Assembly (NCBI GenBank): GCA_964414875.1
Contig: CAYPXU010000002.1
Span: 1-39,730 of the forward strand
Direction of reading: 5' to 3'
Source of the DNA: an uncultured Zetaproteobacteria bacterium
Lineage (GTDB): Bacteria > Pseudomonadota > Zetaproteobacteria > Mariprofundales > Mariprofundaceae
DNA length: 39,730 nucleotides
Shown here in pieces: positions 9,691 through 22,653 of the stretch. The stretch's first letter is position 1. The number at the start of each line of letters is the position of its first letter. A model generated the notes under the pieces. The model had not been told where the DNA came from. It was given only the letters and a program-made list of their open reading frames with translations, and made no database searches. The translations under genes and the position numbers were made by a program.

Positions 9691-11316
9691 CTAAGCACGT
9701 TTTAACCATAACATCGTAACATCATCATCCGCTGCCAGCCTGCCAAAATCATTAAGTTCTTCCTGCAAGCCTTTTGATAGAAGCGCAACATCTGAGTTGC
9801 CATGTTCTGCAAACCACTGTTTCACCCTCGCTTCACCAAACATTTCATCTGAATCGTAATCACGTGCCTCTGTAATGCCATCACTATACACCAACAAGGT
9901 ATCACCCTTTTCAAACATATACTCAGATACTTCAAACTTTAAATCCGTCTGTAAACCCAAGGGTGGTGATGATGCTTCAAATGCCTCAATCTTTCCATTC
10001 CTACACAACAATGCAGGAACATGCCCTGCATTCAACCACAACAAAGAATTCGATTCAGGCTGAAGTTTCGCTAAAAACAGTGTCACAAAACGCCCGCCAG
10101 TCAGCGTTTCACAGAGTGTATTATTAACATACTCCACGGCCTTTTCAAAAGGCAGCTCTAAATGTGCCAGTGCATGCAACATAGCCCGTAAATTTGCCAC
10201 TGTCAGCGCGGCGGGATAACCCTTGCCTGCAACATCCGCAACGACCAACCATACACGACCATCAGGCAATACAATATGATCATAATAATCACCACCCACA
10301 GCCTCGCAGCTTTGTTCAAAACCTAATATCTGATAATTTTTAATTTCAGGAACACCTACAGGCAGCATAGCATGGTGGATTTCTTCAGCAATTTCCAGCC
10401 CGTGTTTTAACTCTTCACGCTCTCTCAAACCTGCAAAAGCGGTATTCATTCCTTTCGCCAACGTGCCAAACTCATCATCACTCAATACTGCCACACGACC
10501 ATCATACTGACCTTGCCGCATGCGCTCTAAACCAATAGAAAAACTTGCCATCACCTGCTTTAAAATCTTACCTACCGTAAAAACAAGCCATGCTCCTGCC
10601 AATATCAATAAAACAAATAACACACCCGCTTGTAATAAAATAAATTGTTGTTCAGATGCAGTATCTGTGCCCAAAATAAGATAAACAAAGAACGCCAAAA
10701 TACTGGCTGGCAAAGCACTGGTAATTAAAAAGATAACCCATGGCCGACGTGATATTTTATTCCAGTCTAATATACTACCATAGCCATCATCCAAGGTATG
10801 TAGAAATAATCCTTTTCCAGCCAGTTCCGCACGCAAACGAACGCTATATGCCAAGGTTATAGACAATGCCATGCTCGGTGCAAGCACTCCTGCGCCATAC
10901 AATAATGACAACGCCAAAGCAATAGACATGCGTGGTGTTAAAAGCGTTCCACTTACCGCTGCTCCAACATTCAACACCACAATAAGGTAAATAGCACAGC
11001 AGAAACCAGCCATAAAAAAGCCTTTGAAAGCCCGCTTGGGAAGCAATGATATTCCTTGCTCTAAATATTTATGCGATCTTCGCGTTGATTTATCCAACCA
11101 TGACTGCGCTTCTTTAAGCGGATCATAAATCCAAACTGCTGCACCTACAAACACCACTGAAAATACAGCCAAATCAGTCAATGACAACCACCATGGTATG
11201 GCAATAGATGCACTATCACCAAACATCCGCATCACCCATTGGACAGCAATAAAAACCACCAAAAGTGGCCATAAAACAACAATAAAACGCCATATAGAGA
11301 GTTTATATTCTAACAT
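9691..11316 (-). CDS. Membrane-bound HAMP domain / PP2C-type (SpoIIE family) serine phosphatase
   Basis: 541 aa. Polytopic hydrophobic N-terminal half, a HAMP-like linker (DDEFGTLAKGMNTAFAGLRE), then a SpoIIE/PP2C core (GGDYYD, VADVAGKGYPAAL, YSDGITEA, DDVTML). Confidence 0.8.
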   Translation of the reverse strand: MLEYKLSIWRFIVVLWPLLVVFIAVQWVMRMFGDSASIAIPWWLSLTDLAVFSVVFVGAAVWIYDPLKEAQSWLDKSTRRSHKYLEQGISLLPKRAFKGFFMAGFCCAIYLIVVLNVGAAVSGTLLTPRMSIALALSLLYGAGVLAPSMALSITLAYSVRLRAELAGKGLFLHTLDDGYGSILDWNKISRRPWVIFLITSALPASILAFFVYLILGTDTASEQQFILLQAGVLFVLLILAGAWLVFTVGKILKQVMASFSIGLERMRQGQYDGRVAVLSDDEFGTLAKGMNTAFAGLREREELKHGLEIAEEIHHAMLPVGVPEIKNYQILGFEQSCEAVGGDYYDHIVLPDGRVWLVVADVAGKGYPAALTVANLRAMLHALAHLELPFEKAVEYVNNTLCETLTGGRFVTLFLAKLQPESNSLLWLNAGHVPALLCRNGKIEAFEASSPPLGLQTDLKFEVSEYMFEKGDTLLVYSDGITEARDYDSDEMFGEARVKQWFAEHGNSDVALLSKGLQEELNDFGRLAADDDVTMLWLKRA

Positions 11317-11332
11317 GCAGCCACTTTAGCAT

Positions 11333-11364
11333 AAAAAAAGGCGGATGAAATAACTTCACCCACC
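11333..11364 (-). terminator. Rho-independent terminator closing the 18.6-11.4 kb gene string
   Basis: Minus-strand RNA reads ggugggugaaguuauuucauccgcc. The arms gguggguga and ucauccgcc form a 9-bp stem with two G.U pairs around the loop aguuauu, followed by UUUUUUUA. It lies 82 nt past the TPR gene stop. Confidence 0.7.
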
Positions 11365-11445
11365 CTCATAAAAAACATCTAACGCAAGCCGCTATATATA
11401 TCTGCATCATAACAGTCGTTATTACCTGCTATGTAAAAGTCTAAA

Positions 11446-12057
11446 CTATGGGTTATTTTTGACATATTGCAGTGCTTCCAAATGCGAAGGAATACGAATC
11501 AACACCTTATTATAAACACTTTTAGCCAACAGTACTTTACCTTGCCATGCATAAGAGCGCGCCAAATAAACCAAAGCATTGGCATCAGTTGGGTAAAACG
11601 CTGAAACGGTGCGGGCATGCTTCTCCAGATCCTGCCACTTCTTTAACCCTTCTTCACACACCAACAGCCGCGAGTGCGCGGTGTAGTTTAACGGTGCTTG
11701 TGCCAATACCTGATTAATATATCCCATAGCTTCACGCCATCGTTGTTGTGCTATCAATGGTAATGTGATGCCAAGCTTTGCATCAATGGAACGTGGATTT
11801 TGCTGCATGGCTTTTTTATAGCTTCTAGCCGCATCATTAAAATTACCCTGCAAATAATTCAGCCATGCATAACGTAATGTTGCAAACTCACTGCGCTCGC
11901 CTACACCCATATATGGAAGCAACAATGCCGCAGCTTTTTCATACTCACCACTGGCTTCCATTGTGTATGAGCCCAGCCAATCATTTTTAATTTCTTTACT
12001 AAAAGCAATACCTGTTGAGCTGAGTATTAAAAAAACACCTGCTATATACTTAAACAT
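11446..12057 (-). CDS. Secreted tetratricopeptide-repeat (TPR) protein
   Basis: 203 aa. N-terminal signal-like segment MFKYIAGVFLILSSTGIAFS. Repeated TPR-like A/Y/L patterns (e.g. YAWLNYLQGNFNDAARSYKKAMQQNP, YLARSYAWQGKVLLAKSVYNKVL). Confidence 0.7.
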   Translation of the reverse strand: MFKYIAGVFLILSSTGIAFSKEIKNDWLGSYTMEASGEYEKAAALLLPYMGVGERSEFATLRYAWLNYLQGNFNDAARSYKKAMQQNPRSIDAKLGITLPLIAQQRWREAMGYINQVLAQAPLNYTAHSRLLVCEEGLKKWQDLEKHARTVSAFYPTDANALVYLARSYAWQGKVLLAKSVYNKVLIRIPSHLEALQYVKNNP

Positions 12058-12072
12058 ATCTAATATATCCCC

Positions 12073-12972
12073 TTACCACTGTGTTGAAAGATCAATGTAT
12101 GCATAACGATTATTGTAGCTATCGTTAATCGTCTTATCCAAATATTGCTCATTACCACCTGCCAACATCAAGTGCAGTGATTGTGATAATCTCCATTGCA
12201 AGGCTAGCGATAGCGAACCTTTTTGAACATCAGCAAGGTTATACACTGCTGCAGCATCACCATCGACAGCATAAATACGATCACCAAACAAACCAGCAAG
12301 CTGCACTTTTTCTAATCCTAACCATGCATCAGGAGCAAGCCAATGCATCCACTTTACATCCGCTGCCGATGTACGGCTTACATTTTGAGCCCGTAACTTA
12401 TTCGATGGCTTGATAAAATAACCACGAACCTGCAACCAATCAGCACCATCATTAAAGCCCATACCCAATGTTGGTGTCCATTGATCTACTGTAAGGTTGT
12501 TTTTATAGCTTGAACGCGCATAACCCAAGTCAATATAAAAAGTTTTGCTATAATTTAAAAATGAGATTTGAGGAGCAATAACATTCACATTATCCGTATT
12601 TCCCGTCGCATCATTATTATTAATACCATGACCATCCACACGTAATGTTAGTGGTCCAGAAAGTGCATCCAAATATACGTTATAATGGATACTTCCATAA
12701 ACCGACTGCTGATTTAACGTGCTACCAGCATTAAATGTCAGTTTGGTGTAATTACCACCCAATGAGAAACCACCTTGCTCAAGATAATCCGCACTTACAA
12801 TAGCCCCTACGCTAAGCAGGGATTTTCGTTTGATTGACCCACTATACTTACCATAGGAGCCTTGAGTGTCAGCTTTTACTTGCCAATCACCACTTTCTGC
12901 CAAGGCATTGCCTTGCACCCCCATCATGCCAATACAAAACGCGGCAGTCGCTATCAATGCTTTGATATTCAT
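12073..12972 (-). CDS. Outer-membrane beta-barrel protein (uncharacterised, YaiO-like in architecture)
   Basis: ATG at 12972 is preceded by AGGAG. Signal peptide MNIKALIATAAFCIGMMGVQGNALA. Alternating amphipathic beta-strand pattern. C-terminal aromatic residue (..DLSTQW), as in OMPs. Confidence 0.7.
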   Translation of the reverse strand: MNIKALIATAAFCIGMMGVQGNALAESGDWQVKADTQGSYGKYSGSIKRKSLLSVGAIVSADYLEQGGFSLGGNYTKLTFNAGSTLNQQSVYGSIHYNVYLDALSGPLTLRVDGHGINNNDATGNTDNVNVIAPQISFLNYSKTFYIDLGYARSSYKNNLTVDQWTPTLGMGFNDGADWLQVRGYFIKPSNKLRAQNVSRTSAADVKWMHWLAPDAWLGLEKVQLAGLFGDRIYAVDGDAAAVYNLADVQKGSLSLALQWRLSQSLHLMLAGGNEQYLDKTINDSYNNRYAYIDLSTQW

Positions 12973-13062
12973 ATATTCTCCTTTATTCAATATCTAACTA
13001 TTCAGCATAGTTATAAATGCACCTGTCGCTGTTCAGCTTGATGCCTTTATTCTGTCATGCAT

Positions 13063-15222
13063 TCATGTTTCAATTTTCCACGCAGGAATACCTGCATCTG
13101 ATTTCTGTCCGACTTCCAACAAACGTGCTTCAAGCGTGAAATCAGCACTCTGAAGTAAAATTTCTTTGCATCCGAGGTGAGGCTCTATATGCGCCTGTGT
13201 TTGCAGTGCAATACCCTGTTTCCAAGCCAGATTTAATGTATGCTTGCCAGACTGCAACCACTGATGACCATGCCATATACGATCATAATCACTTTGCACT
13301 CCAGCCCCCATAGGATAAAATAAACGACTCAATATATATTGTTTCCATGTCACAGGTAAATATTGCATAGAAGGTCTATCTTGCCATGCCATATCGCCTT
13401 CATTGAGAGGGGTCAATCCGACAGCCAATAACCAAGCATCAAGAAAAGCATCTTTAGGGCCTTCACGATTATAAAAGCTCAATAACGAATCCTGCTGGGT
13501 AAATGCAACACTTGCACCAGAATCTGAACACAGACGTAATTGCCCCGTAAGATTCAAGCTAACATAAAGCTTACACGTGTGATGAACCCCTTGGCTTGTC
13601 ACTTCATAACGCATTTCCCTTCCAACATTAAGTTGCAAACTGCTTGCTAAAGTTTTATCTACTTTAGGCATGCATACCTTTTCCCCTTCTTTAGGGCGGG
13701 CAAAAAGCTTGAATTGATTGCCCTCTTGCCCTTGAACCTGATGCAATACCGTTGTTAAATGAAAAGGATGTGTTGCGCCACCCAAGACATCCCCATATTG
13801 CACATGCAGATGTAAATGAGGTTGCGGAGAACGCCCAGAACTACCACACAAAGCAAGACTTTGTCCTGGGTGAACATACGCACCAATTTCAATATCAATG
13901 CTTGCTTGTTTAAGATGCGCCAGTAGCACATACAAACCATTATTCAAACGAATGAGAATATGGTTTCCCCAGTTGTTTTCGCTATCAACTTCACCAGGTT
14001 TATTATCTGGTAGAGAATCGAGTTTCTTAACCACAAAGCCTGCGACTGGTGAAAGCACGGGTAAAGCAAAACAAAAGTAATCTTCCAGCGTAGCACCATC
14101 GGTACGAAAGCTTTTTCCTTCATCAACAATATAAAAGTCCAAAGCATGCTGCCAAGGTTCTTGGTGCGTATGTACGCCATTAAAACCTTGGTATATCTCC
14201 CACTCACCATAAAATGGTGGTAATACTGGAACACTAGAAAACTCACCATTTCTGGCAATGGCAAGACGTGAGTTCTCAAAACTTTTTTCAGGTAACTCTG
14301 GTGATTCAAGGGTGAGCTGTAACTGACTTGATAAAGGACGCTGCGTGAGTGCCAATAACACAATCAACGATGTTGCCAAAAATGGCAAAGCCATCACAGG
14401 CAGACCATATACCAGCATAAAAGTTTCTGATGCAGCGGTAATCAGAGCGGCAATGACTGCCCCGACCATCGCTAATATAAAACTGTGTTTGCTGGGTATA
14501 GTAAAAACACCACCCAAAGCCATCGCCACCAAGATAAAGTTAAAACCATTCCATGCGACCAAATCAGGGTGCGGACTACCTGAAAGAAAACTATAAACAC
14601 TAAAGCCACAAATAAAACCACTAATCGCCAGCCAAGCCAAATAGCGTGAGGTTATCAATATACCTAAAAAAAGTAATAAGCCTGCAACAGGATGCGGGGT
14701 AAAAAATGCCGATCCCAGAGCCGTTAAAAATTGATCAATCCATGCATTGATCAATGTTGAACTGGGTACTAATGGCAATAAATAACGCTCTAATGTGCCA
14801 TAACTATGCGCTGCTAAAGTCACCGTTAGTGCAACAATCACAAAAGGCAAACTCAAGACAGGCACATGCCCCAAACGCCACATCACATCACGCATTGCCA
14901 CGGTTGCAAACACTGCCAAAACAGCCCCTAGCGTAATCAATACCGCAAGGTGCATATTCAGTTGATAATATGCACCCAACGAAAGACCTACCAACAAGCT
15001 GTTATACACATGTAAACCACTTTCAAGATGATTAAACTTGAGTAATTTAGCCGTTACGATACCAACCACTGCCGCCAATATGCCCGCAAGACCTGTATTG
15101 GGAAACCATAACGTTGCCAGTAAAAACAATCCGCCAATCCAAGGTTTTTCAGCGAACAAAATGGAGCCATAAGCTCGCAGCAAACCTTGGATTGGGTTTT
15201 GTAATAATTTATTGCTAAACAA
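13063..15222 (-). CDS. Fusion protein: urea-transporter (UT) family membrane domain + M23/LytM metallopeptidase domain + C-terminal domain of unknown function
   Basis: 719 aa with an apparent TTG start. Residues ~1-300 are polytopic and UT-like (LRAYGSILFAEKPWIGGLFLLATL...). The middle part carries M23 hallmarks (NHILIRLNNGLYVLLAHL, GQSLALCGSSGRSPQPHLHLHV). About 200 C-terminal residues are unassigned. Confidence 0.7.
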   Translation of the reverse strand: MFSNKLLQNPIQGLLRAYGSILFAEKPWIGGLFLLATLWFPNTGLAGILAAVVGIVTAKLLKFNHLESGLHVYNSLLVGLSLGAYYQLNMHLAVLITLGAVLAVFATVAMRDVMWRLGHVPVLSLPFVIVALTVTLAAHSYGTLERYLLPLVPSSTLINAWIDQFLTALGSAFFTPHPVAGLLLFLGILITSRYLAWLAISGFICGFSVYSFLSGSPHPDLVAWNGFNFILVAMALGGVFTIPSKHSFILAMVGAVIAALITAASETFMLVYGLPVMALPFLATSLIVLLALTQRPLSSQLQLTLESPELPEKSFENSRLAIARNGEFSSVPVLPPFYGEWEIYQGFNGVHTHQEPWQHALDFYIVDEGKSFRTDGATLEDYFCFALPVLSPVAGFVVKKLDSLPDNKPGEVDSENNWGNHILIRLNNGLYVLLAHLKQASIDIEIGAYVHPGQSLALCGSSGRSPQPHLHLHVQYGDVLGGATHPFHLTTVLHQVQGQEGNQFKLFARPKEGEKVCMPKVDKTLASSLQLNVGREMRYEVTSQGVHHTCKLYVSLNLTGQLRLCSDSGASVAFTQQDSLLSFYNREGPKDAFLDAWLLAVGLTPLNEGDMAWQDRPSMQYLPVTWKQYILSRLFYPMGAGVQSDYDRIWHGHQWLQSGKHTLNLAWKQGIALQTQAHIEPHLGCKEILLQSADFTLEARLLEVGQKSDAGIPAWKIET

Positions 15223-15230
15223 ACTTACGC

Positions 15231-16610
15231 CTATCGTTTCGTTACGCTGGATAAGTGCTCAGGAATGACTTCTTGAGCTGTCATTACCTGCAAATCTTCA
15301 GCATGACGCACAACAGACACCGAACTATCCTCATGAACCATGATAATATTTGGACGATACTCAATAAATTGCATCCATTGGGTATTATTATACGCACCAA
15401 CATGTCCAAAAATAAGTGAATCACCTACATTCATGGGCGGTAACATCGCTGATTGACGCATAATATCGATATTCATACACAACGGACCATAAAGCACCGT
15501 ATCTTCTGCCACACCATCCAAAGGACGCGTTGGTGTAATCGGGTGATTATACCAAAAGCCTGTAAATAATAAATTCACGCCCGCATCAATCACCACAGAA
15601 CGCCGACCATCAGGCATACGTTTATTGGCAATCACCGATGTAACAAGAATTTCAGCATCATCCACCATCGCACGACCACTTTCCAAAATAAGTCGAGGTC
15701 TGCCTTTGCCCTGCATATCACGCTCACGTGTGGCATCATTTAAGGCAGTGCAAATAGCTTCAGCATATTGATCAATACTCGGTACCACTTGTTCAGGCGG
15801 TAAATAGCTGCCTTGCAATGAATTCATCGATGCAAAACCACCACCAATATCAATACTTTCAATATGGCAGCCTGTTTGTGATTCAACATCATTCATAAAT
15901 GCACACATAATATGAATTTGTGCCGAATAAGCCCTTGGATCAAGTACAAATGTGCCTAAATGACTGTGTAAACCTGCCAAATTCAGATGCTTGCTCTCAC
16001 CCAAAATACGCGCTGCATCCATGGCTTGACCCGATTCAATATTAAAGCCAAAGCGGCTCCATGGCTCGGTGTAACCTGTATCAAAATTAAGTCGCATCGT
16101 CACATCAACTTGTTTACCCGCTTCTTTGGCAATATCTTCTAACACATACAACTCATCAAGATTATCCAGATGAATGCGCGCACCTTCAGCAACCACACGT
16201 TCAAGAATGAATCGCTGTTTATGGGGGCCATTGAATAAAATATGTTTGGCTGGAACACCCAATGAGCGAGCCTTTTCATATTCAAATGCAGAGACTACCT
16301 CAGCCCAAGCACCTTCTTGATGAAAGGTTGTGCAAACAGCGCCCAAATAGTTGGTTTTATAAGACCAGCTATAGGTCACAGAAGGATAGCGTGTTTCAAA
16401 TGCACGCAATAATTTACGCACATTGTTTCGCAAGCGTTTTTCAGAAAGAATAAACAATGGTGAACCGTATTTCTCTAATAATGGCGCAATCGCAACACCT
16501 TCAAAACTATCTTGATGGTGGCTATGGCTGACACTACCAAATTTATTCATGGAGCCCATTTGATGCGGTGTCAGCGTTGGTTTACTCCAAACTTGTTTTG
16601 TTTGCGTCAT
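15231..16610 (-). CDS. Type III-fold PLP-dependent decarboxylase (ornithine/diaminopimelate/arginine decarboxylase family)
   Basis: 459 aa. PLP-lysine context SWSYKTNY. GGGF phosphate-binding motif (IDIGGGFAS). Conserved C-terminal GPLCMNID and GAY motifs. The start overlaps the upstream stop (ATGA). Confidence 0.8.
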   Translation of the reverse strand: MTQTKQVWSKPTLTPHQMGSMNKFGSVSHSHHQDSFEGVAIAPLLEKYGSPLFILSEKRLRNNVRKLLRAFETRYPSVTYSWSYKTNYLGAVCTTFHQEGAWAEVVSAFEYEKARSLGVPAKHILFNGPHKQRFILERVVAEGARIHLDNLDELYVLEDIAKEAGKQVDVTMRLNFDTGYTEPWSRFGFNIESGQAMDAARILGESKHLNLAGLHSHLGTFVLDPRAYSAQIHIMCAFMNDVESQTGCHIESIDIGGGFASMNSLQGSYLPPEQVVPSIDQYAEAICTALNDATRERDMQGKGRPRLILESGRAMVDDAEILVTSVIANKRMPDGRRSVVIDAGVNLLFTGFWYNHPITPTRPLDGVAEDTVLYGPLCMNIDIMRQSAMLPPMNVGDSLIFGHVGAYNNTQWMQFIEYRPNIIMVHEDSSVSVVRHAEDLQVMTAQEVIPEHLSSVTKR

Positions 16611-17752
16611 GATTTCTCTCCATGTGATGAATTGTCGCTTGCGACAAGATGCCTACCCCTTGCGGGTATACTTTTTTTCACTATTGCCTTCGGCGCATAG
16701 CTGCCATACATCGACATGGACTCAAAAGTTCCCAAATCAATGACCGTTTCTTGGGCATAACGAATCATCATCATACCCGTTTTTGCAGGCGTAAATTCCG
16801 GCTTTTTATCCAGTATTAAATCCACCAATCCAGCAGGCAGATTACATCCCGACTCAGCTGCCAAATAAATCCAAGCAGGAAAACGAGGGTTTATTTCAAT
16901 AAGCAGATAATTACCATCAGGCTCTTTAAGCATCTCCACTTCTAAAGGGCCTGCCCATTGTAATTCCTTGGCTAATTTCTCCGCATCTTCACGCAGTTGT
17001 TTGTTTTCAACAGTTACACAAGACCAAGCTTTACCTTTATCAGTAACCGCTTGTTTACGCATCATCACGGAGCCTAAAAGCTTGCCTTTGCCATCACCGA
17101 TGGCTGTTAAATTAACCTCATGCCCTTCCACATAACGTTGCACCAATACTGGGTAACCCCAACTGGCGGCAATCTGACGAAAAGCCTGCGCACCTTCATC
17201 CGCACTGTGTACGACAGTAGCATCATAGAAAATACCTTTTACAACCATCGGATATTTCCAGCCATCATCATGGCATTGATAAAAGAAATTCGCGCTGGTG
17301 ATGGTTTTAGTTTCAGGGTAACGGATACCTGCTTTTTTGGACAACTCACCCAGTCGATCCTTATTGCGGTCGCGTAATTGCGCCATATCAGGAATCAACA
17401 TGCGAATACCCAAACTTTCAAACTCATGGTGCAAGCGACTAAAACTTAATAATTCAGCATCCAAGCATGGAATCAATACATCAACCTGCTCTTGCTCTTG
17501 AATATATTGCATGCGCTCCATCAATTGTTGTTCGCCTGCAGATGGGTAGGGCAGTAAATAGGAAACATCGCAAATTTCTTCTAAATAGAGCCCTGCATCC
17601 AACACATCGTAACCCAAGCCAATAATGCGAATATTATCGCCATGTGCCAATCGCAGACAACGCGCCACAGCCAAACCAGGGCCTGGATTATCAGGTTTCG
17701 CATTCATGCCTGTAACAGCAATGGTTAACATTCTTTTATCTGACTTACTCAT
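16607..17752 (-). CDS. ATP-grasp family ligase
   Basis: 381 aa. ATP-grasp pattern: YPMVVKG, VLVQRYVEGHEVNL, LLIEINPRFPAW. The start overlaps the upstream stop (ATGA). Confidence 0.8.
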   Translation of the reverse strand: MSKSDKRMLTIAVTGMNAKPDNPGPGLAVARCLRLAHGDNIRIIGLGYDVLDAGLYLEEICDVSYLLPYPSAGEQQLMERMQYIQEQEQVDVLIPCLDAELLSFSRLHHEFESLGIRMLIPDMAQLRDRNKDRLGELSKKAGIRYPETKTITSANFFYQCHDDGWKYPMVVKGIFYDATVVHSADEGAQAFRQIAASWGYPVLVQRYVEGHEVNLTAIGDGKGKLLGSVMMRKQAVTDKGKAWSCVTVENKQLREDAEKLAKELQWAGPLEVEMLKEPDGNYLLIEINPRFPAWIYLAAESGCNLPAGLVDLILDKKPEFTPAKTGMMMIRYAQETVIDLGTFESMSMYGSYAPKAIVKKSIPARGRHLVASDNSSHGEKS

Positions 17753-18579
17753 ACAAGAAATTTGCGCAACTGCGCTGAGAACTCAGTGATATCACGCTCT
17801 GCATCACTGCGATTCACATCAAAATCGGATTCAATGCCTGCAAGCAAATCAGCAGCACTGCTATGATTTTGTAAAAAACGAAGCACATACAACCCTACAG
17901 TATTAGCGGTAAAACTTCGCCCACTTTCAGGGTCAAATACAAAACCACTATCATTTAATGCCAAGCGTTGAAGAATCTCTTGTGAAGGAAAGGTCTCCAT
18001 TTTATTTTGGTCTTTTTCCCAAGGTAATTTGGTCATAAGTAGCTCCTTGTGTTGATTGCGTTGCGGGTTTTCAGGGTTCCAAGCGCGATAAATAGATTGT
18101 AATAAATGATCGGTAAGGGCATCAACTGTTAAAAGTGATGAATCCATTTTTACAAGTTCAATATGCGTATGTAAAAAACGCCTGAATTGCTCACGATAAT
18201 ATTCGAGTTGTTGGCGTAAATAGGGTGTATCCATAGGGTTACAACATAAAAAACTTAAGGACACACGATCATTTAATAGTTTTTGTATTAGTTGATGTAA
18301 ACCACGCTCGCCAATAGCCGTTATCTTGAGAGTTATGCGCAGTTGTTCACCACGGCTATCCAACCAAGCCGCCATCATACTTTCTTTCGAAGAAAATAGA
18401 CGAAACAATACACCATCAGAAATCCCCGATTCTCGGGATACTTTTTTCGTTGTTAAAAAGGCTAACTGATCTTTATGAGCAATGTCATCAATCGCCTGTA
18501 GCACTTGTTGATGACGTTTTTTAGCCGTTTCACTTTTGAATGATATGTCAGACATGTGGCGTATCAAAAATGAAAGCAT
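17749..18579 (-). CDS. TetR-family HTH regulator fused to a C-terminal PqqD-like (RRE-type peptide-binding) domain
   Basis: 276 aa. The N-terminus has the TetR HTH (TTKKVSRESGISDGVLFRLFSSKESMM). The C-terminal ~85 aa (LNDSGFVFDPESGRSFTANTVGLYVLRFL...DFDVNRSDAERDITEFSAQL) looks PqqD-like. An alternative start is the ATG at 18555 (MSDISFK). Confidence 0.65.
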   Translation of the reverse strand: MLSFLIRHMSDISFKSETAKKRHQQVLQAIDDIAHKDQLAFLTTKKVSRESGISDGVLFRLFSSKESMMAAWLDSRGEQLRITLKITAIGERGLHQLIQKLLNDRVSLSFLCCNPMDTPYLRQQLEYYREQFRRFLHTHIELVKMDSSLLTVDALTDHLLQSIYRAWNPENPQRNQHKELLMTKLPWEKDQNKMETFPSQEILQRLALNDSGFVFDPESGRSFTANTVGLYVLRFLQNHSSAADLLAGIESDFDVNRSDAERDITEFSAQLRKFLV

Positions 18580-18588
18580 TCACTTTCA
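18571..18588. promoter_or_regulatory. Candidate operator palindrome TGAAAG-N6-CTTTCA at the 5' end of the TetR::PqqD gene
   Basis: Perfect 6-bp inverted arms, tgaaag (18571-18576) and ctttca (18583-18588). It sits 16-33 nt upstream of the ATG at 18555. TetR regulators typically autoregulate through such palindromes. Confidence 0.3.
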
Positions 18589-18665
18589 CAAGCTTTAAGT
18601 TTGTTAACCGATGTCAACTAAGATGATATAAGCTAGCCTATCGCCTCTCCTAGCTAACAAATAAA

Positions 18666-19463
18666 TTATAGACTCAATACATCCTGCATATCATACCAAC
18701 CAGCGGGCTGCTCTAAAAGCCAGCTTGCAGCACGTACCGCACCTTTAGCAAAGACAATGCGATCTTGCGCAAAATGATTAATTTCAATACGCTCTTCATC
18801 GGCAATAAATGTAGCTTTATGATCACCAATAATGTTGCCCCCACGCACCACTGAAAAGCCAATACTTCCAGCTTCACGCCCCCCAGTAATCCCTGCACGG
18901 GCATACACCGCAACATCATCTAACTTCACATCACGACCATCGGCTAAAGCACGACCCATTGCTAAAGCGGTGCCCGATGGAGCATCCACTTTATGTTTGT
19001 GGTGCGCTTCATAGATTTCAGCATCATAATCACTACCCAACACCTGTGCAGCCTGCTGAATCAAGCTTAAAACCAAATTCACACCCACTGAATAGTTCGC
19101 TGCCATCACCACCCGCGAGGCAGAAAGTGTTGCTTTTAATACATCCATTTGTGCAGGTTCAAAACCCGTTGTGCCAATGACCATTGCCATATTCTTCTCT
19201 GCAACAAATTTAGCATGTTCCAAGCAGCCTTGCGGAGCTGTAAAATCAATCAACACATCTGCTGGCTCACATTGACTTAAGTCATCTACTAAGCTCACAC
19301 CCAATGCGCCAATAGCCGCTAAATTTCCTGCATCCGTACCAAGCAGCGCTGAATTTTCACGCTCTGTTGCGCCCACCAACTCTGCACTTTCATAAGCATC
19401 AATCGCTTTAACCAACATCCGCCCCATACGCCCTGAAGCACCTGTTACAATGACCTTCATCAT
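18666..19463 (-). CDS. dapB: 4-hydroxy-tetrahydrodipicolinate reductase
   Basis: 265 aa. N-terminal Rossmann motif [24 protein letters not shown] signature. The start overlaps the dnaJ stop. Confidence 0.93.
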
Positions 19464-20605
19464 TTCACCTCACTTGCCAAATCATCTATAAAGCTTTTAA
19501 CTTTACCCAAAAAAGAAGAGCGATCTGGATATACTTCATCACCGGTCGCCTCAGCAAACTTTTCTAGGGCTTCTCTTTGTACTTTTGATAACTTTTTAGG
19601 CACAGCAATATTCACGCGCACATACAAATCACCCGTTTGGTTGGTTCGCACATCTGGCACACCATGACCACGCAAACGAAACACGCGACCAGCCTCAGTT
19701 CCTGCTGGAATACGAATTTTCACATTTCCTGTCAACGTAGGTGCATCAATTTCTGTGCCCAATACGGCTTGTGGAAAGGTAATCGGCATATCACAATGCA
19801 AATCAGCGCCATCGCGCTCGAAAATTGCATGCTCTTTCAGGCTAACCACCACATACAAATCACCTGCTGGGCCGCCATGTTCACCCACTTCACCTTCACC
19901 AGATACACGAACCTGTGCACCATGATAAACACCCGCAGGCACTTTAATTTTTAGATTCTTGGTAACACGTTTACGACCTGTACCACCACAACTTACACAC
20001 GGTGATTCAATCTTTTTGCCCTGACCATGACAAGTAGGACATGTACGACGAACAGCAAAGAAACCTTGCTGCATTTGCACTTGCCCGTGACCACCACAGG
20101 TCGTACATGGCACAGGATGTGTGCCAGGGCGCGCACCTGAACCATCACAGGTATCGCAATGGGCATGCTTGGGAATATCCAATGCAACTTCTTTGCCCGC
20201 AGCAGCTTCTTCAAGCGTTAACTCCAAATCATAACGCAAATCCGAACCACGATTGACTTGCTGTCCACCGCCCTGACCCCCACCGAACATGTTACCAAAC
20301 ACATCACCAAACAAATCACCAAAATCACGATAAGCATGTGAATCTTGGAATCCACCTGCACCAAAACCACCCATTTGAGCATCTACACCCGCATGACCAT
20401 ATTGATCATAACGACTACGCTTATCATCATCGGATAGCACCTCATAGGCTTCCGTTACTTCACGAAAGTTTGCAGCCGCAGCCTCATCATCAGGATTCTT
20501 ATCTGGATGATATTTCATGGCTAACTTTCGATAGGCACGCTTAATACCATTGGCATCCGCACTTTTTTCTACACCCAAAACTTCATAATAATCGCGTTGT
20601 GACAC
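19460..20605 (-). CDS. dnaJ: Molecular chaperone DnaJ
   Basis: J domain with HPD (KYHPDKNP), a G/F-rich linker, and four CxxCxGxG zinc-finger repeats. Confidence 0.97.
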
Positions 20606-20654
20606 AGGCTATCTCCAAGCTTATATTCTTATTCTATCATACTCTTAAACAACA

Positions 20655-20688
20655 AGAGGGAGCAAGGTACACCGTACCCGCTCCCTCT
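20655..20688 (-). terminator. Strong intergenic hairpin between dnaK and dnaJ (attenuator/partial terminator)
   Basis: Arms agagggagc / gctccctct give a perfect 9-bp stem, with an inner ggtac/gtacc extension. On the minus strand a U-rich tract (uuguuguuu) follows. Confidence 0.55.
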
Positions 20689-20706
20689 CTATCAAGCTAT
20701 CAACAC

Positions 20707-22653
20707 TTACTTTTTATCATCAACCACTTCTGCATCAACCACTTCTGCATCCATCACGTCTGCACCTTTTGCTCTAGAAGCAGTATCAGCACCCGTTTCT
20801 GGTGCTGCACCTGCTGCATCACCAGCTTCTGAAGCAGCTTGTTCAGCTTGCATCTTTTGATACACAGCCTCACCCAACTTCTGTGATTTCTCACCCAAGT
20901 TTTCTTCAGCCTTCTTAATCGCCTCAATATCAGAGCCTTCCAAGGCAGTTTTTAATTCTGCCATCGCAGTTTCAATCGCCGCTTTGGTTTCATCATCGAC
21001 AGCCTCAGCATTTTCTTTCAATGATTTTTCAGTAGCATAATACATCTGATCCGCACGGTTACGGGTCTCAATATTTTCTTTTGCTTTCGCATCTTCATCA
21101 GCATGGGCTTCAGCATCTTGTTTCATACGTTCGATTTCTTCTTCGGACAAACCAGAACCTGATTCAATACGAATCGATGTTTCCTTGCCTGTACCCTTAT
21201 CTTTCGCATGCACATGGATAATACCATTAGCATCAATATCAAAGGTCACTTCAATTTGCGGCATACCACGTGCTGCTGGAGCAATACCTTCAAGGTTAAA
21301 CAAACCCATTTCTTTATTGGCAGAGAAGATTTCACGCTCACCCTGGGCAATTTTAATGGTTACCGCTGTTTGGTTATCCGCAGCAGTCGTATAAGTTTGG
21401 CTCTTTTTGGTTGGGATGGTGGTGTTTTTCTCAATAATCTTATTGAATAAACCACCTTCCACTTCAATGCCCAAAGACAATGGCGTAACATCAAGCAATA
21501 ACACATCTGTCACATCACCCGTCAAGATTGCGCCCTGAATACCCGCACCAATCGCCACAACTTCATCAGGATTCACACCTTTATGAGGCTCTTTGCCAAA
21601 AAATGCTTCCACTTTGCTTTGTACCAATGGCATACGTGTTTGACCACCCACCAATACAACATCATGAATTTCAGATGCTTTCACACCTGCATCTTTCAAG
21701 GCTTGTTTACATGGAGCCAATGAATGCTCAACCAAATCTCCTACCAAGGATTCAAACTTGGCACGTGTTACTTTTACCAACAAATGTTTAGGACCTGATG
21801 CATCCGCAGTAATAAATGGTAGGTTTACTTCTGTCTGTTGTGCCGAAGACAATTCAATCTTAGCTTTTTCCGCAGCTTCTTTTAAGCGTTGTAATGCCAA
21901 CTTATCTTGTAATAAATCTACACCATTTTCTTTCTTAAATTCTTCTGCGAGGTATTTAATAAGCACTTGATCAAAATCTTCACCCCCCAAGAAAGTATCA
22001 CCATTGGTGGCTTTTACTTCAAATACGCCATCACCGATTTCCAAGATAGACACATCAAATGTACCACCACCCAAATCGTAAACAGCAATCAAATGATTCT
22101 CTTCAGTTTTATCCAAACCATATGCCAATGCCGCAGCCGTTGGCTCGTTTACAATACGCAATACGTTCAAGCCAGCAATCGCACCAGCATCTTTGGTTGC
22201 TTGGCGTTGAGAGTCATTAAAATATGCAGGAACTGTAATCACAGCATCCGTCACAGTTTCGCCCAAATAATCTTCTGCTGTTGTTTTCATCTTCTGCAAA
22301 GTGATTGCAGAGATTTCCTGAGGGCTCATCTTCTTGCCATCAACTTCAAGCCAAGCATCACCATTATCAGCAGCTACAATAGGATAGGAAACCAACTCAT
22401 GGTGATGTTTGGTTTCTTTTGAATCAAATTTACGACCAATCAAACGTTTAACCGCATAAAAAGTGTTATCCGGATTGGTTACCATCTGACGCTTCGCAGC
22501 AGCACCTACCAAACGCTCATCCCCAGTAAATGCCACAACCGACGGGGTTGTATTATCACCTTCTGCATTTGGGATTACTTTATGCGTATCACCTTCCATC
22601 ACAGATACACATGAATTGGTTGTTCCTAAATCAATACCAATAACTTTTGCCAT
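20707..22653 (-). CDS. dnaK: Molecular chaperone DnaK (Hsp70)
   Basis: 648 aa. Canonical Hsp70 signatures ([26 protein letters not shown]). Confidence 0.98.

Follow-up and report, generated by a model that had tools for sequence, protein, structure and literature searches.

We analyzed a 39,730-nt stretch of DNA (the whole of which we call the window) from an uncultured Zetaproteobacteria bacterium of the family Mariprofundaceae (assembly GCA_964414875.1, contig CAYPXU010000002.1, positions 1 to 39,730 of the forward strand). Six genes on its minus strand encode a PqqD module fused to a TetR-like domain, an ATP-grasp ligase, a pyridoxal 5'-phosphate (PLP) decarboxylase, a urea transporter (UT) fold fused to an M23 metallopeptidase (UT::M23), an outer-membrane beta-barrel and a tetratricopeptide repeat (TPR) protein. 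This gene set, hereafter the cassette, is a self-contained and horizontally mobile unit with an invariant four-gene core and two common envelope accessories. We hold with high confidence that the cassette is real and conserved. Because no curated model, defense entry or paper covers it, and because it lacks defining parts of each of the nearest characterized systems, we regard it as a system of a new kind, assembled from known folds. Its features in the window are the following, where RRE stands for the recognition element of peptides made by ribosomes and modified after translation (RiPPs).

17749..18579, minus strand: gene 1, TetR-like helix-turn-helix and helical region (residues ~1-190) joined to a PqqD/RRE-like domain (~195-276); probable start ATG 18555; matches in Pfam, NCBIfam and PDB
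18566..18592, minus strand: operator-like motif CTTGTGAAAGTnAAnnCTyTCATTTT with the palindrome TGAAAG (18588-18583) / CTTTCA (18576-18571)
17752..17997, minus strand: PqqD/RRE-like module, found throughout the family (70/70), unlike the TetR part of gene 1
16607..17752, minus strand: gene 2, ATP-grasp ligase; start overlaps the gene 1 stop (ATGA); Pfam ATPgrasp_Ter
15231..16610, minus strand: gene 3, alanine-racemase-fold PLP decarboxylase of the clade of FslC, SbnH, BtrK and diaminopimelate decarboxylase (DAPDC); PDB and Pfam matches
16536..16598, minus strand: leader-like N-terminal tail of the decarboxylase, residues 5-25, KK-x-W8-x-K10-P11-T-L13-T-P-H-R-x-G19-x-L-N22-K23-F24-G25
13063..15222, minus strand: gene 4, inner-membrane UT channel fold, M23 metallopeptidase and orphan beta-rich domain in one protein; Pfam, AlphaFold2 (AF2) and Foldseek
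14347..15189, minus strand: UT membrane domain of gene 4, residues 12-292, predicted N-in/C-in; alignments to dvUT, UT-A and UT-B
13783..14220, minus strand: M23 (LytM-type) zinc-peptidase domain, residues ~335-480, predicted cytoplasmic; invariant H353, D362, H436, H469 and H471
13066..13782, minus strand: orphan C-terminal beta-rich domain, residues 481-719; pLDDT ~90
12073..12990, minus strand: gene 5, 14-strand outer-membrane beta-barrel of a new family; likely start ATG 12972; signal peptide and C-terminal ...LSTQW
11446..12057, minus strand: gene 6, secreted TPR protein of 203 aa; N-terminal signal peptide, no lipobox cysteine
11327..11367, minus strand: intrinsic-terminator-like hairpin and T-run at the operon end; 14-pair stem (11367..11337), loop of 3, then TTTTTATGCT

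The cassette is conserved across distant lineages

A scan of one genome per species, seeded with an alignment of the UT::M23 protein (two peptide patterns), returned 80 loci, mostly from metagenome-assembled genomes (MAGs). Components were counted in the 70 loci with enough flanking sequence to be scored, and the genes that flank the cassette in the window were counted over 81 loci. The PqqD module, the ATP-grasp ligase and the decarboxylase were each found in 70/70 loci, and the genes for PqqD, ATP-grasp, decarboxylase and UT::M23 were adjacent and in identical order in every one of these (70/70). The barrel gene was present at 57/70 and the TPR gene at 62/70 loci, and the N-terminal TetR fusion was seen at 29/70. 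Family-wide, the median intergenic distances are -4, -4, +3, -4 and +8.5 nt. An earlier annotation made from the DNA letters alone (the sequence-only reading) had described the operon as tightly linked and had proposed co-conservation in other genomes as a test; both points hold across the family, and the linkage of the cassette genes is far beyond chance. A reverse check that started from ATP-grasp homologs gave two loci, each with the whole cassette.

The flanks, on the other hand, are unrelated: dapB, a neighbor of the cassette in the window, was found beside it at 1/81 loci, and the SpoIIE-phosphatase gene on its other side at 0/81. All-against-all clustering of open reading frames (ORFs) of at least 70 aa from about 80 loci gave the six cassette families and shadow ORFs only, and no seventh co-conserved family. 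It is from the core synteny, the unrelated flanks and the lack of a seventh family that we therefore derive the self-contained and mobile nature of the unit. No plasmid carrying the full UT::M23 fusion was found; Ensifer megaplasmids hold only a small membrane-anchored M23 protein with a HALD motif.

The closest homologs of the cassette proteins are from Mariprofundaceae (Zetaproteobacteria). One MAG contig (L080; L numbers label the loci) encodes proteins 94-100% identical to those of the window and has the upstream dapB in common with it. The census covers at least 10 lineages, namely Zetaproteobacteria, Methylococcales, Halieaceae, Thiohalomonadaceae, Thiotrichaceae, Gallionella, Rhodocyclales (including Sulfuritalea), Magnetococcales, Rhodospirillales and Nitrospirota. 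The hosts are iron oxidizers, methanotrophs, magnetotactic bacteria, sulfur oxidizers, aerobic anoxygenic phototrophs and Nitrospirota. Because the cassette is perfectly syntenic and evidently mobile, it must serve a general function in organisms of aquatic redox gradients, yet the cassette itself has no name or curated family model. Cultured hosts make direct testing possible: the zetaproteobacterial isolates Ghiorsea bivora and Mariprofundus sp. EBB-1 and, with a complete genome, Congregibacter variabilis IMCC43200 (Halieaceae).

Three MAGs carry two cassette copies each, on different contigs (L039/L042, L051/L052 and L074/L078). In L051/L052, the barrel and TPR genes are present in one copy, and a different lipoprotein-like ORF takes their place in the other.

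The decarboxylase resembles FslC and carries a leader-like tail

Gene 3 matches the Pfam family Orn_Arg_deC_N (111.6 bits) together with the corresponding C-terminal domain, and its PLP lysine, K85, lies in the motif SYKTNY. The nearest solved relative is FslC/FigC (7kh2; 181 bits), followed by the best DAPDC at 136 and BtrK at 80 bits. FslC is the N-citrylornithine decarboxylase of rhizoferrin synthesis and forms a clade with SbnH, AcsE, MccE, BtrK and the DAP decarboxylases. FslC, SbnH, AcsE, MccE and BtrK decarboxylate side-chain-conjugated amino acids in pathways to secreted products, the exceptions to secreted-product biosynthesis in the clade being DAPDC and D-ornithine/lysine decarboxylase (PMC7857480).

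Of the cassette proteins, that of gene 3 is the best conserved (median identity 65% over the phyla of the census). Residues K85, T350, W353, Y354, C378, M379, Y407 and Q411 are invariant in 78 orthologs, and the PLP lysine, whose absence from alignments would have spoken against the sequence-only reading, is thereby retained along with the catalytic Cys-Met loop (C378-M379). T350, Y354 and Y407 correspond to T327, Y331 and Y383 of FigC, whereas W353 replaces FigC T330 and Q411 replaces the citrate-binding R387. The specificity helix (LLFTGFWYNHP) is neutral and aromatic, without the Asp of ornithine and arginine decarboxylases (ODC, ADC) and without the Arg of DAPDC. The high conservation of the enzyme, with all these positions invariant, argues for a defined small side-chain conjugate, non-citryl in nature, as the substrate.

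The scores against curated models stay below their cut-offs, both for the NCBIfam FslC model NF041039 (202.7 bits, cut-off 500) and for the LysA equivalog TIGR01048 (208.4 bits, cut-off 297.9). We considered a role of gene 3 in lysine biosynthesis as LysA and rejected it on account of this score, the missing DAPDC arginine and the adjacency to dapB at a single locus.

In front of the catalytic fold lies an extension of about 25 residues with the consensus (K/R)K-x-W-x-K-P-T-L/I-T-P-H-R-x-G-x-L-N-K-F-G. Its Trp, Pro and Lys23 are present in 74/74 full-length orthologs, and the Gly positions in 71-73 of the 74. FslC and DAPDC lack this tail, and alignments with them start at residues 37-40. The RREs of lasso peptide B1 proteins recognize a YxxPxL leader motif (Tyr-17, Pro-14, Leu-12) (PMC10368454). 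The aromatic-x-x-P-x-L spacing of the tail equals that of YxxPxL, and when W8 is taken as position -17 the residues K-F-G fall at -2, -1 and +1. This likeness to a lasso leader is suggestive. Because of the motif spacing, and because the cassette offers no other peptide, we propose the tail as a candidate ligand of the PqqD/RRE module.

The PqqD module looks like a lasso-type RRE

The protein encoded by gene 1 matches Pfam PqqD with 37.4 bits (3.2e-9; cut-off 23.4) and TetR_N with 21.6 bits (1.9e-4), just below the gathering threshold of 24. Its NCBIfam matches are lasso_PqqD (NF033530; 1.8e-6) and SlmA (6e-7). Among PDB entries the lasso B1 protein TfuB1 (6jx3) came out best (5e-5), followed by the regulators TetR, SlmA and RamR. 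In this respect the PqqD domain resembles a lasso-type RRE. At 41/70 loci (e.g., L002, L086 and L087) it is encoded alone, as a protein of about 90 aa, and its C terminus shows no conservation.

The sequence-only reading had taken PqqD-like domains as the peptide-binding RREs of RiPP pathways. The lasso-RRE likeness bears this out as far as the domain is concerned; the candidate ligand, however, is the decarboxylase tail and not a separate precursor. That reading had also seen no precursor-peptide ORF nearby, and our clustering agrees with it: among about 80 loci, no small ORF was conserved across lineages, whether of 12 aa or more within the 1.5-kb flanks or of 10 aa or more in the internal gaps. 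The only recurrent small "ORF" in the flank clustering was the operator DNA motif.

This operator-like motif occurs at 25/26 TetR-fused loci, gammaproteobacterial ones included, about 15 nt upstream of a conserved ATG. Its palindrome is a likely autoregulatory operator of TetR::PqqD. Since position 18579 falls inside the conserved palindromic motif, the true start of gene 1 is probably ATG 18555 and not 18579.

A UT channel fold is fused to an M23 domain predicted to be cytoplasmic

In gene 4, Pfam recognizes UT (PF03253; 185.7 bits, 1.4e-54) and Peptidase_M23 (41 bits, 1.7e-10). More than 1000 homologs (E <= 0.001) have the architecture of gene 4, and the UT+M23 combination is listed without a function in a 2026 survey (PMC12998343). 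In an AF2 model (pLDDT 82), Foldseek placed the UT part on dvUT, UT-A and UT-B with TMt values of 0.75-0.86, and the M23 part on LytM, lysostaphin and EnpA with TMt values of 0.6-0.74.

The pore keeps the hydrophobic slot, where the aromatic Y73 aligns with F80 of dvUT, as well as the LPxxS/AxPF motifs. At the positions aligned to dvUT GQvmFQ and GEvmFQ, gene 4 reads GSiLFA and GSaFFT, so that small residues replace polar ones; we take these Gln/Glu positions of dvUT to be urea-coordinating. The two signature Thr of UT proteins are Ser and Ala in gene 4. The score against the Yut equivalog TIGR03441 is 120 bits with a cut-off of 274.6, and no urease genes were found beside gene 4 in the clustering of about 80 loci. 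The channel is probably intact and not necessarily urea-selective.

The topology of the UT fold is established as N-in/C-in. The counts of Lys plus Arg (K+R) in gene 4, which are 3.5 for the N terminus, 0.6 for the central loop and 6.0 for the linker behind the tenth transmembrane helix (TM10), agree with this orientation. The protein has no signal peptide, and the M23 domain follows TM10. From the K+R distribution and the UT topology we predict that the M23 domain and the 240-residue domain behind it are cytoplasmic, which is unusual for M23 peptidases. A periplasmic M23 domain had been implicit in the sequence-only reading, and the predicted topology speaks against it.

The second half of the M23 domain is canonical (GN..I...aHL...GssGrS.qPHLHlhv) when compared with 6jmx, 3slu and lysostaphin. 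The first motif reads H353-x5-H359-A-L-D362 (H353...Q-H359-A-L-D362), in which H353 and D362 are invariant and H359 is Tyr in 2/14 sequences. A 300-aa membrane-anchored M23 protein without a UT domain, encoded on an Ensifer adhaerens megaplasmid (NZ_CP084487.1; L085, 8554-9456), has the same unusual first motif (H...Q-R-H-A-L-D) and a canonical PHLHIH, as in the cassette M23. This likeness suggests a distinct membrane-associated M23 subfamily.

The C-terminal beta-rich domain of gene 4 is an orphan. In a phmmer search of 1.84 billion representatives it gave 135 clusters, nearly all of them UT::M23-length proteins of 700-790 aa or fragments. It has no Pfam match, and no PDB fold for it was among the best 50 Foldseek matches, which were mostly to UT and M23. 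One UT::M23 representative, P0375 (1112 aa), exceeds the others by about 390 residues; its orphan domain spans 480-712, and it has an extra C-terminal region.

The ligase and the two envelope accessories

Gene 2 matches Pfam ATPgrasp_Ter (45.6 bits, 7e-12) and also ATP-grasp_3. The Mg/phosphate motif E286-I-N288-P-R290 and the nucleotide-binding K172 are invariant in the family; the catalytic residues that the sequence-only reading had singled out as a test are therefore in place. PDB searches with the single sequence and with a 21-member profile gave weak matches only. The nearest to the family profile was 2pn1, an uncharacterized structural-genomics protein, along with the large subunit of carbamoyl phosphate synthetase (CPS), in its carbamate-phosphorylating domain, and biotin carboxylases, followed by Ddl, PurD and PylC, a non-discriminating set. 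Archaeal pseudomurein ligases were matched weakly as well. The substrate class of the ligase cannot be read from this homology.

For gene 5, an AF2 model (pLDDT 90.6) shows 14 strands behind the signal peptide. Foldseek related it to monomeric porins, with TM-scores of 0.61-0.65 for OmpG and 0.58 for CymA, and about 0.49 for the BcsC barrel. The family has no Pfam match even at E<=1 across 27 members, and no NCBIfam match. Gene 6 matches several Pfam TPR families (1e-8 to 7e-12), and its NCBIfam similarity is generic TPR similarity only, to PrsT, MamA, LapB, PgaA and BcsC. The sequence-only reading had compared this pair with AlgK/AlgE and with the TPR-barrel fusions BcsC and PgaA. We abandoned that analogy, since the barrel is closer to OmpG and CymA than to BcsC and no synthase is co-conserved. 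A polysaccharide exporter was likewise rejected on the grounds that the barrel has 14 and not 16-18 strands and that neither a synthase nor a glycosyltransferase is co-conserved. The UT, M23 and barrel proteins of the cassette each depart from their own family, the UT part in its pore residues and its fusion, the M23 domain in its predicted cellular location and the barrel in having no family assignment.

The barrel and TPR genes are absent or replaced at loci of several Rhodocyclales and at some gammaproteobacterial and Nitrospirota loci. Four Rhodocyclales variants (L068, L073, L075 and L082) have no gene for the 14-strand barrel. In L068, an unrelated secreted ORF of 234 aa (12090-12794) separates the UT::M23 gene from the TPR gene; L073 has its TPR gene directly after UT::M23.

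Proposed function and alternatives

Starting from what is shown, namely gene co-conservation, conserved catalytic residues, folds, predicted topology, tail and operator, we tentatively suggest, as a possibility to which we would not give even odds, that a small metabolite of the amine or amide type is produced by the module in the cytoplasm and moved outward across both membranes. We favor biosynthesis because the members of the decarboxylase clade mostly serve secreted-product pathways. The ATP-grasp enzyme, recognized by its family and motifs, would form an amide and thereby link the side chain of an amino acid to an acceptor. The PLP decarboxylase may then, by analogy with FslC, SbnH, AcsE, BtrK and MccE, strip the alpha-carboxylate from this side-chain-linked amino acid and not from free DAP or a free basic amino acid. 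The PqqD/RRE module would dock the decarboxylase tail (W-x-K-P-x-L...N-K-F-G) and so keep ligase and decarboxylase together. In lineages with the TetR fusion, TetR::PqqD might repress the operon by binding at the conserved palindrome. The cytoplasmic M23 and orphan domains under the UT channel could cleave an amide and thus release or deprotect the product, which would leave via the modified UT pore and then the 14-strand barrel, with the periplasmic TPR protein assisting. Substrates, order of steps, direction of transport and contact between RRE and tail are inferred in this scheme.

A more far-reaching version, which we think improbable, makes the tail both leader and carrier. The RRE would bind WxKPxL and the ATP-grasp enzyme would tether an amino acid near N-K-F-G, for example at Lys23. 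The decarboxylase would then process, in its own active site, a residue tethered to it by an isopeptide bond, and the channel-fused cytoplasmic M23 domain would free the product into a re-tuned urea-type pore. If true, this would be the first use of RiPP recognition logic for protein-templated small-molecule synthesis. The channel would then be the first of UT fold to carry a cargo other than urea, the peptidase would be the first of the M23 family with a biosynthetic role in the cytoplasm, and the TetR-fused repressor would sense the level of engagement of its own pathway enzyme.

Several points weigh against the biosynthetic interpretation, and our confidence in any particular product is low. 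OmpG, CymA and bacterial UT channels are uptake channels in known contexts. A urea-type pore is too narrow for cargo beyond a small amide, and charged amines would be unexpected in it unless its selectivity is altered. The nearest characterized relatives of the ATP-grasp enzyme are CPS and biotin carboxylases and not amide ligases, with scores that are all weak. The first zinc motif of the M23 domain is atypical, H353-x8-D362 or H359-x2-D362 in place of HxxxD. The simple tail pattern is a short motif that occurs in 2.5% of background ORF N termini, its extended version in 0.2%. Finally, the barrel and TPR proteins are missing or replaced at about 10-20% of the loci.

The strongest rival, in our view still rather unlikely, is uptake with trapping. 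Barrel, TPR protein and UT channel would import a scarce small nitrogen compound resembling an amide, urea or a tiny peptide, the M23 domain and the ligase would convert it, and the decarboxylase would process the resulting conjugate, much as urease traps the substrate for UreI/Yut and GlpK for GlpF. The porins OmpG and CymA do work in substrate-specific operons, characterized bacterial UT channels import urea, and a passive channel needs a metabolic sink, for which an enzyme fused at its cytoplasmic mouth is well suited. The ATP-grasp profile, nearest to carbamate- and bicarbonate-activating enzymes, and the presence of two cassette copies in some genomes, as is often seen for transport and catabolic modules, point the same way. 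However, urease, amidase and other genes of nitrogen assimilation are absent from the co-conserved families, the pore has not kept the polar residues that coordinate urea, and there is no precedent for a catabolic role of a ligase together with an FslC-like decarboxylase and an RRE. In addition, the characterized decarboxylase clade is biosynthetic apart from DAPDC and D-ornithine/lysine decarboxylase (PMC7857480).

The lasso-B1-like RRE also brings to mind a RiPP pathway whose precursor is encoded elsewhere, in which PqqD would bind the leader, the ATP-grasp enzyme and the decarboxylase would modify the core, and the M23 domain would cut off the leader at a Gly-containing site before export, as the C39 domain does in PCAT transporters. 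ATP-grasp enzymes do modify RiPPs such as graspetides, and a peptidase fused to a membrane protein resembles the peptidase-containing exporters. We nevertheless consider this very doubtful: no small ORF is conserved in the 1.5-kb flanks or the gaps of about 80 loci, and a distant precursor would be lost from a cassette that crosses phyla as a unit of four to six genes with unrelated flanks. Moreover, a peptide cannot pass a UT pore, and the free alpha-amino acid that PLP-dependent alpha-decarboxylation requires is not available in a ribosomal peptide. Editing or recycling of cell-wall peptides has a similarly slight chance of being correct. Here the M23 domain would cut muropeptide stems, the ATP-grasp enzyme would re-ligate an amino acid, as Ddl, Aslfm or pseudomurein ligases do, and the DAPDC-like enzyme would decarboxylate the free D-center of peptide-bound meso-DAP. 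Characterized M23 enzymes are indeed peptidoglycan endopeptidases, the ligase weakly matches Ddl and archaeal pseudomurein ligases, and the decarboxylase is related to DAPDC. Yet the topology prediction puts the M23 domain in the cytoplasm, the decarboxylase lacks the specificity Arg of DAPDC and misses the LysA cut-off (208 vs 297.9 bits), no Mur, Mpl, AmpG or flippase genes are co-conserved, and the UT channel, the porin and the PqqD module would be left without a role. The secretion of a polymer, either an exopolysaccharide or a polyamide, through a TPR-barrel pair like AlgK/AlgE, BcsC or PgaA appears extremely unlikely. The TPR gene does adjoin the barrel gene, its product is weakly similar to the TPR regions of PgaA, BcsC and PrsT (NCBIfam), and many of the hosts make extracellular matrices; but the barrel is a 14-strand, OmpG-like one and not a 16-18-strand exporter, the co-conserved families include no glycosyltransferase, synthase or polymerase, the TPR protein is only 203 aa long, and both envelope proteins are dispensable in some lineages.

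Whichever reaction it performs, the cassette joins parts without a known partnership: a urea-channel fold, an M23 domain of predicted cytoplasmic location, a precursor-less RRE, an FslC-like decarboxylase and a new porin family. Its elucidation would probably bring to light a new metabolite, secreted or else scavenged, that matters to communities cycling iron, methane or sulfur, and would define both a new class of cargo for UT channels and a new use of RiPP recognition domains.

Comparison with characterized systems

None of the six proteins reached an equivalog-level NCBIfam cut-off, and none matched a defense model in PADLOC. A literature search found nothing on the cassette besides the one 2026 survey that lists the UT+M23 architecture. 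The statement of the sequence-only reading that no characterized pathway matches this gene set is in line with these results. By analogy, the cassette would work like the pairs FslA/FslC, BtrJ/BtrK and PvsA/PvsE, and it differs from each of them in defining components.

Rhizoferrin synthesis by FslA/FigA and FslC/FigC in Francisella follows the same logic, with an amide formed on a side-chain amine, subsequent removal of the alpha-carboxylate and secretion of the product. FslC and gene 3 share the PLP Lys, the Cys-Met loop, the Thr and Tyr of the specificity helix and Tyr383. The rhizoferrin ligase, however, is an IucA/IucC-type synthetase for siderophores made independently of nonribosomal peptide synthetases (NIS synthetase), whereas the cassette ligase is of the ATP-grasp type; no NIS synthetase of this type was found in the cassette or among the co-conserved families at about 80 loci. 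The citrate-binding Arg387 of FslC is Gln411 in the cassette and Thr330 is Trp353, both invariant. Further, the cassette lacks a major facilitator superfamily (MFS) exporter, and PqqD, UT::M23, barrel and TPR protein come in addition.

In butirosin synthesis, the ATP-grasp enzyme BtrJ is followed by the alanine-racemase-fold PLP decarboxylase BtrK acting on a tethered amino acid, with a later hydrolytic deprotection, which is like the cassette. The sequence-only reading had offered this as one of its analogies. Its ligate-then-decarboxylate logic is sound, but FslC/FigC is the closer relative (181 vs 80 bits) and the cassette has no gene for a carrier like an acyl carrier protein (ACP). In addition to the ACP BtrI, phosphopantetheinyl chemistry and a BtrG-type cyclotransferase are missing. 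If the cassette has a carrier at all, it would be the N-terminal tail of the decarboxylase.

Vibrioferrin synthesis (PvsA-E) depends on two NIS synthetases together with an MFS exporter and a TonB-dependent receptor, all of them missing from the cassette; PvsA is presumably an ATP-grasp-type enzyme. PvsE is a DAPDC-like decarboxylase that, with bond-forming ligases, leads to a small secreted carboxylate compound (PMC6836290).

The best PDB and NCBIfam matches of the PqqD module are lasso B1 proteins and PqqD chaperones, and taking W8 as -17 puts a Gly at the position of core residue 1. The cassette nevertheless lacks a separate gene for a precursor, as well as a B2 cysteine protease and an Asn-synthetase-like cyclase, and its putative leader is the N terminus of a 459-aa enzyme, unlike a lasso precursor. 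Compared with a lasso leader, the tail has Trp for Tyr and Lys for Thr(-2), with its intermediate Gly displaced by two residues.

With dvUT, Yut and UT-A/UT-B, gene 4 has in common the 10-helix fold, the hydrophobic slot and the LPxxxxPF signature. It differs from these urea transporters in its fusion to a cytoplasmic M23 domain and an orphan domain, in the changed polar pore positions and in the lack of a urease nearby.

In the LysW/LysX/LysK pathway, an ATP-grasp enzyme ties an amino acid to a protein carrier through an amide bond, the tethered amino acid is modified, and a metallopeptidase releases it. The likeness to the cassette is functional only. The cassette has no LysW-like carrier with a C-terminal acidic tail, release would be by M23 and not M20, and no LysX structure was among the PDB profile matches of the ATP-grasp enzyme.

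Operon layout and genomic context

The six co-directional ORFs of the minus-strand run 18579..11446 were all found in our ORF check at the positions given by the sequence-only reading. Its account of the spacing is likewise accurate: ATGA start/stop overlaps join gene 1 to gene 2 (17749-17752) and gene 2 to gene 3 (16607-16610), the gap between the decarboxylase and UT::M23 genes is 8 nt, and that between the barrel and TPR genes is 15 nt. The gap of about 90 nt between UT::M23 and the barrel holds for a barrel start at ATG 12972, and is 72 nt from TTG 12990. The strong terminator said to close the operon is seen as the hairpin with the 14-bp stem and T-run, and the domain assignments proved right as well, for genes 1, 2, 3, 4 and 6 by Pfam and NCBIfam profile searches and for the gene 5 barrel by its structure model. 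The base composition of the cassette is not distinct from that of its flanks in the window.

Directly upstream of the cassette lie dnaK, dnaJ and dapB (18666-22653, minus strand). The position of dapB beside a DAPDC-like gene looks meaningful but, because it is kept at one of the 81 loci only, is coincidental. Downstream of the operon, beyond the terminator, a membrane HAMP-SpoIIE (PP2C) phosphatase is encoded (9691-11316, minus strand). In other Mariprofundus loci (L008, L010, L012, L013, L014 and L066) a large HAMP histidine-kinase-like ORF begins 38-98 nt after the TPR gene on the same strand, and in L087 a divergent two-component system lies upstream of PqqD. Signal-transduction genes thus recur as neighbors of the cassette, but they are non-orthologous, and the histidine-kinase neighbors are lineage-specific.

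No tRNA genes were found in the window (1-39730). Rfam gave no match at gathering score over the whole window, and at E<=1 only sub-threshold noise within the operon. GC skew is negative in every 1-kb bin of the window (1-39730) and nearly all long ORFs are on the minus strand, which is consistent with a single replichore whose genes are co-oriented with replication.

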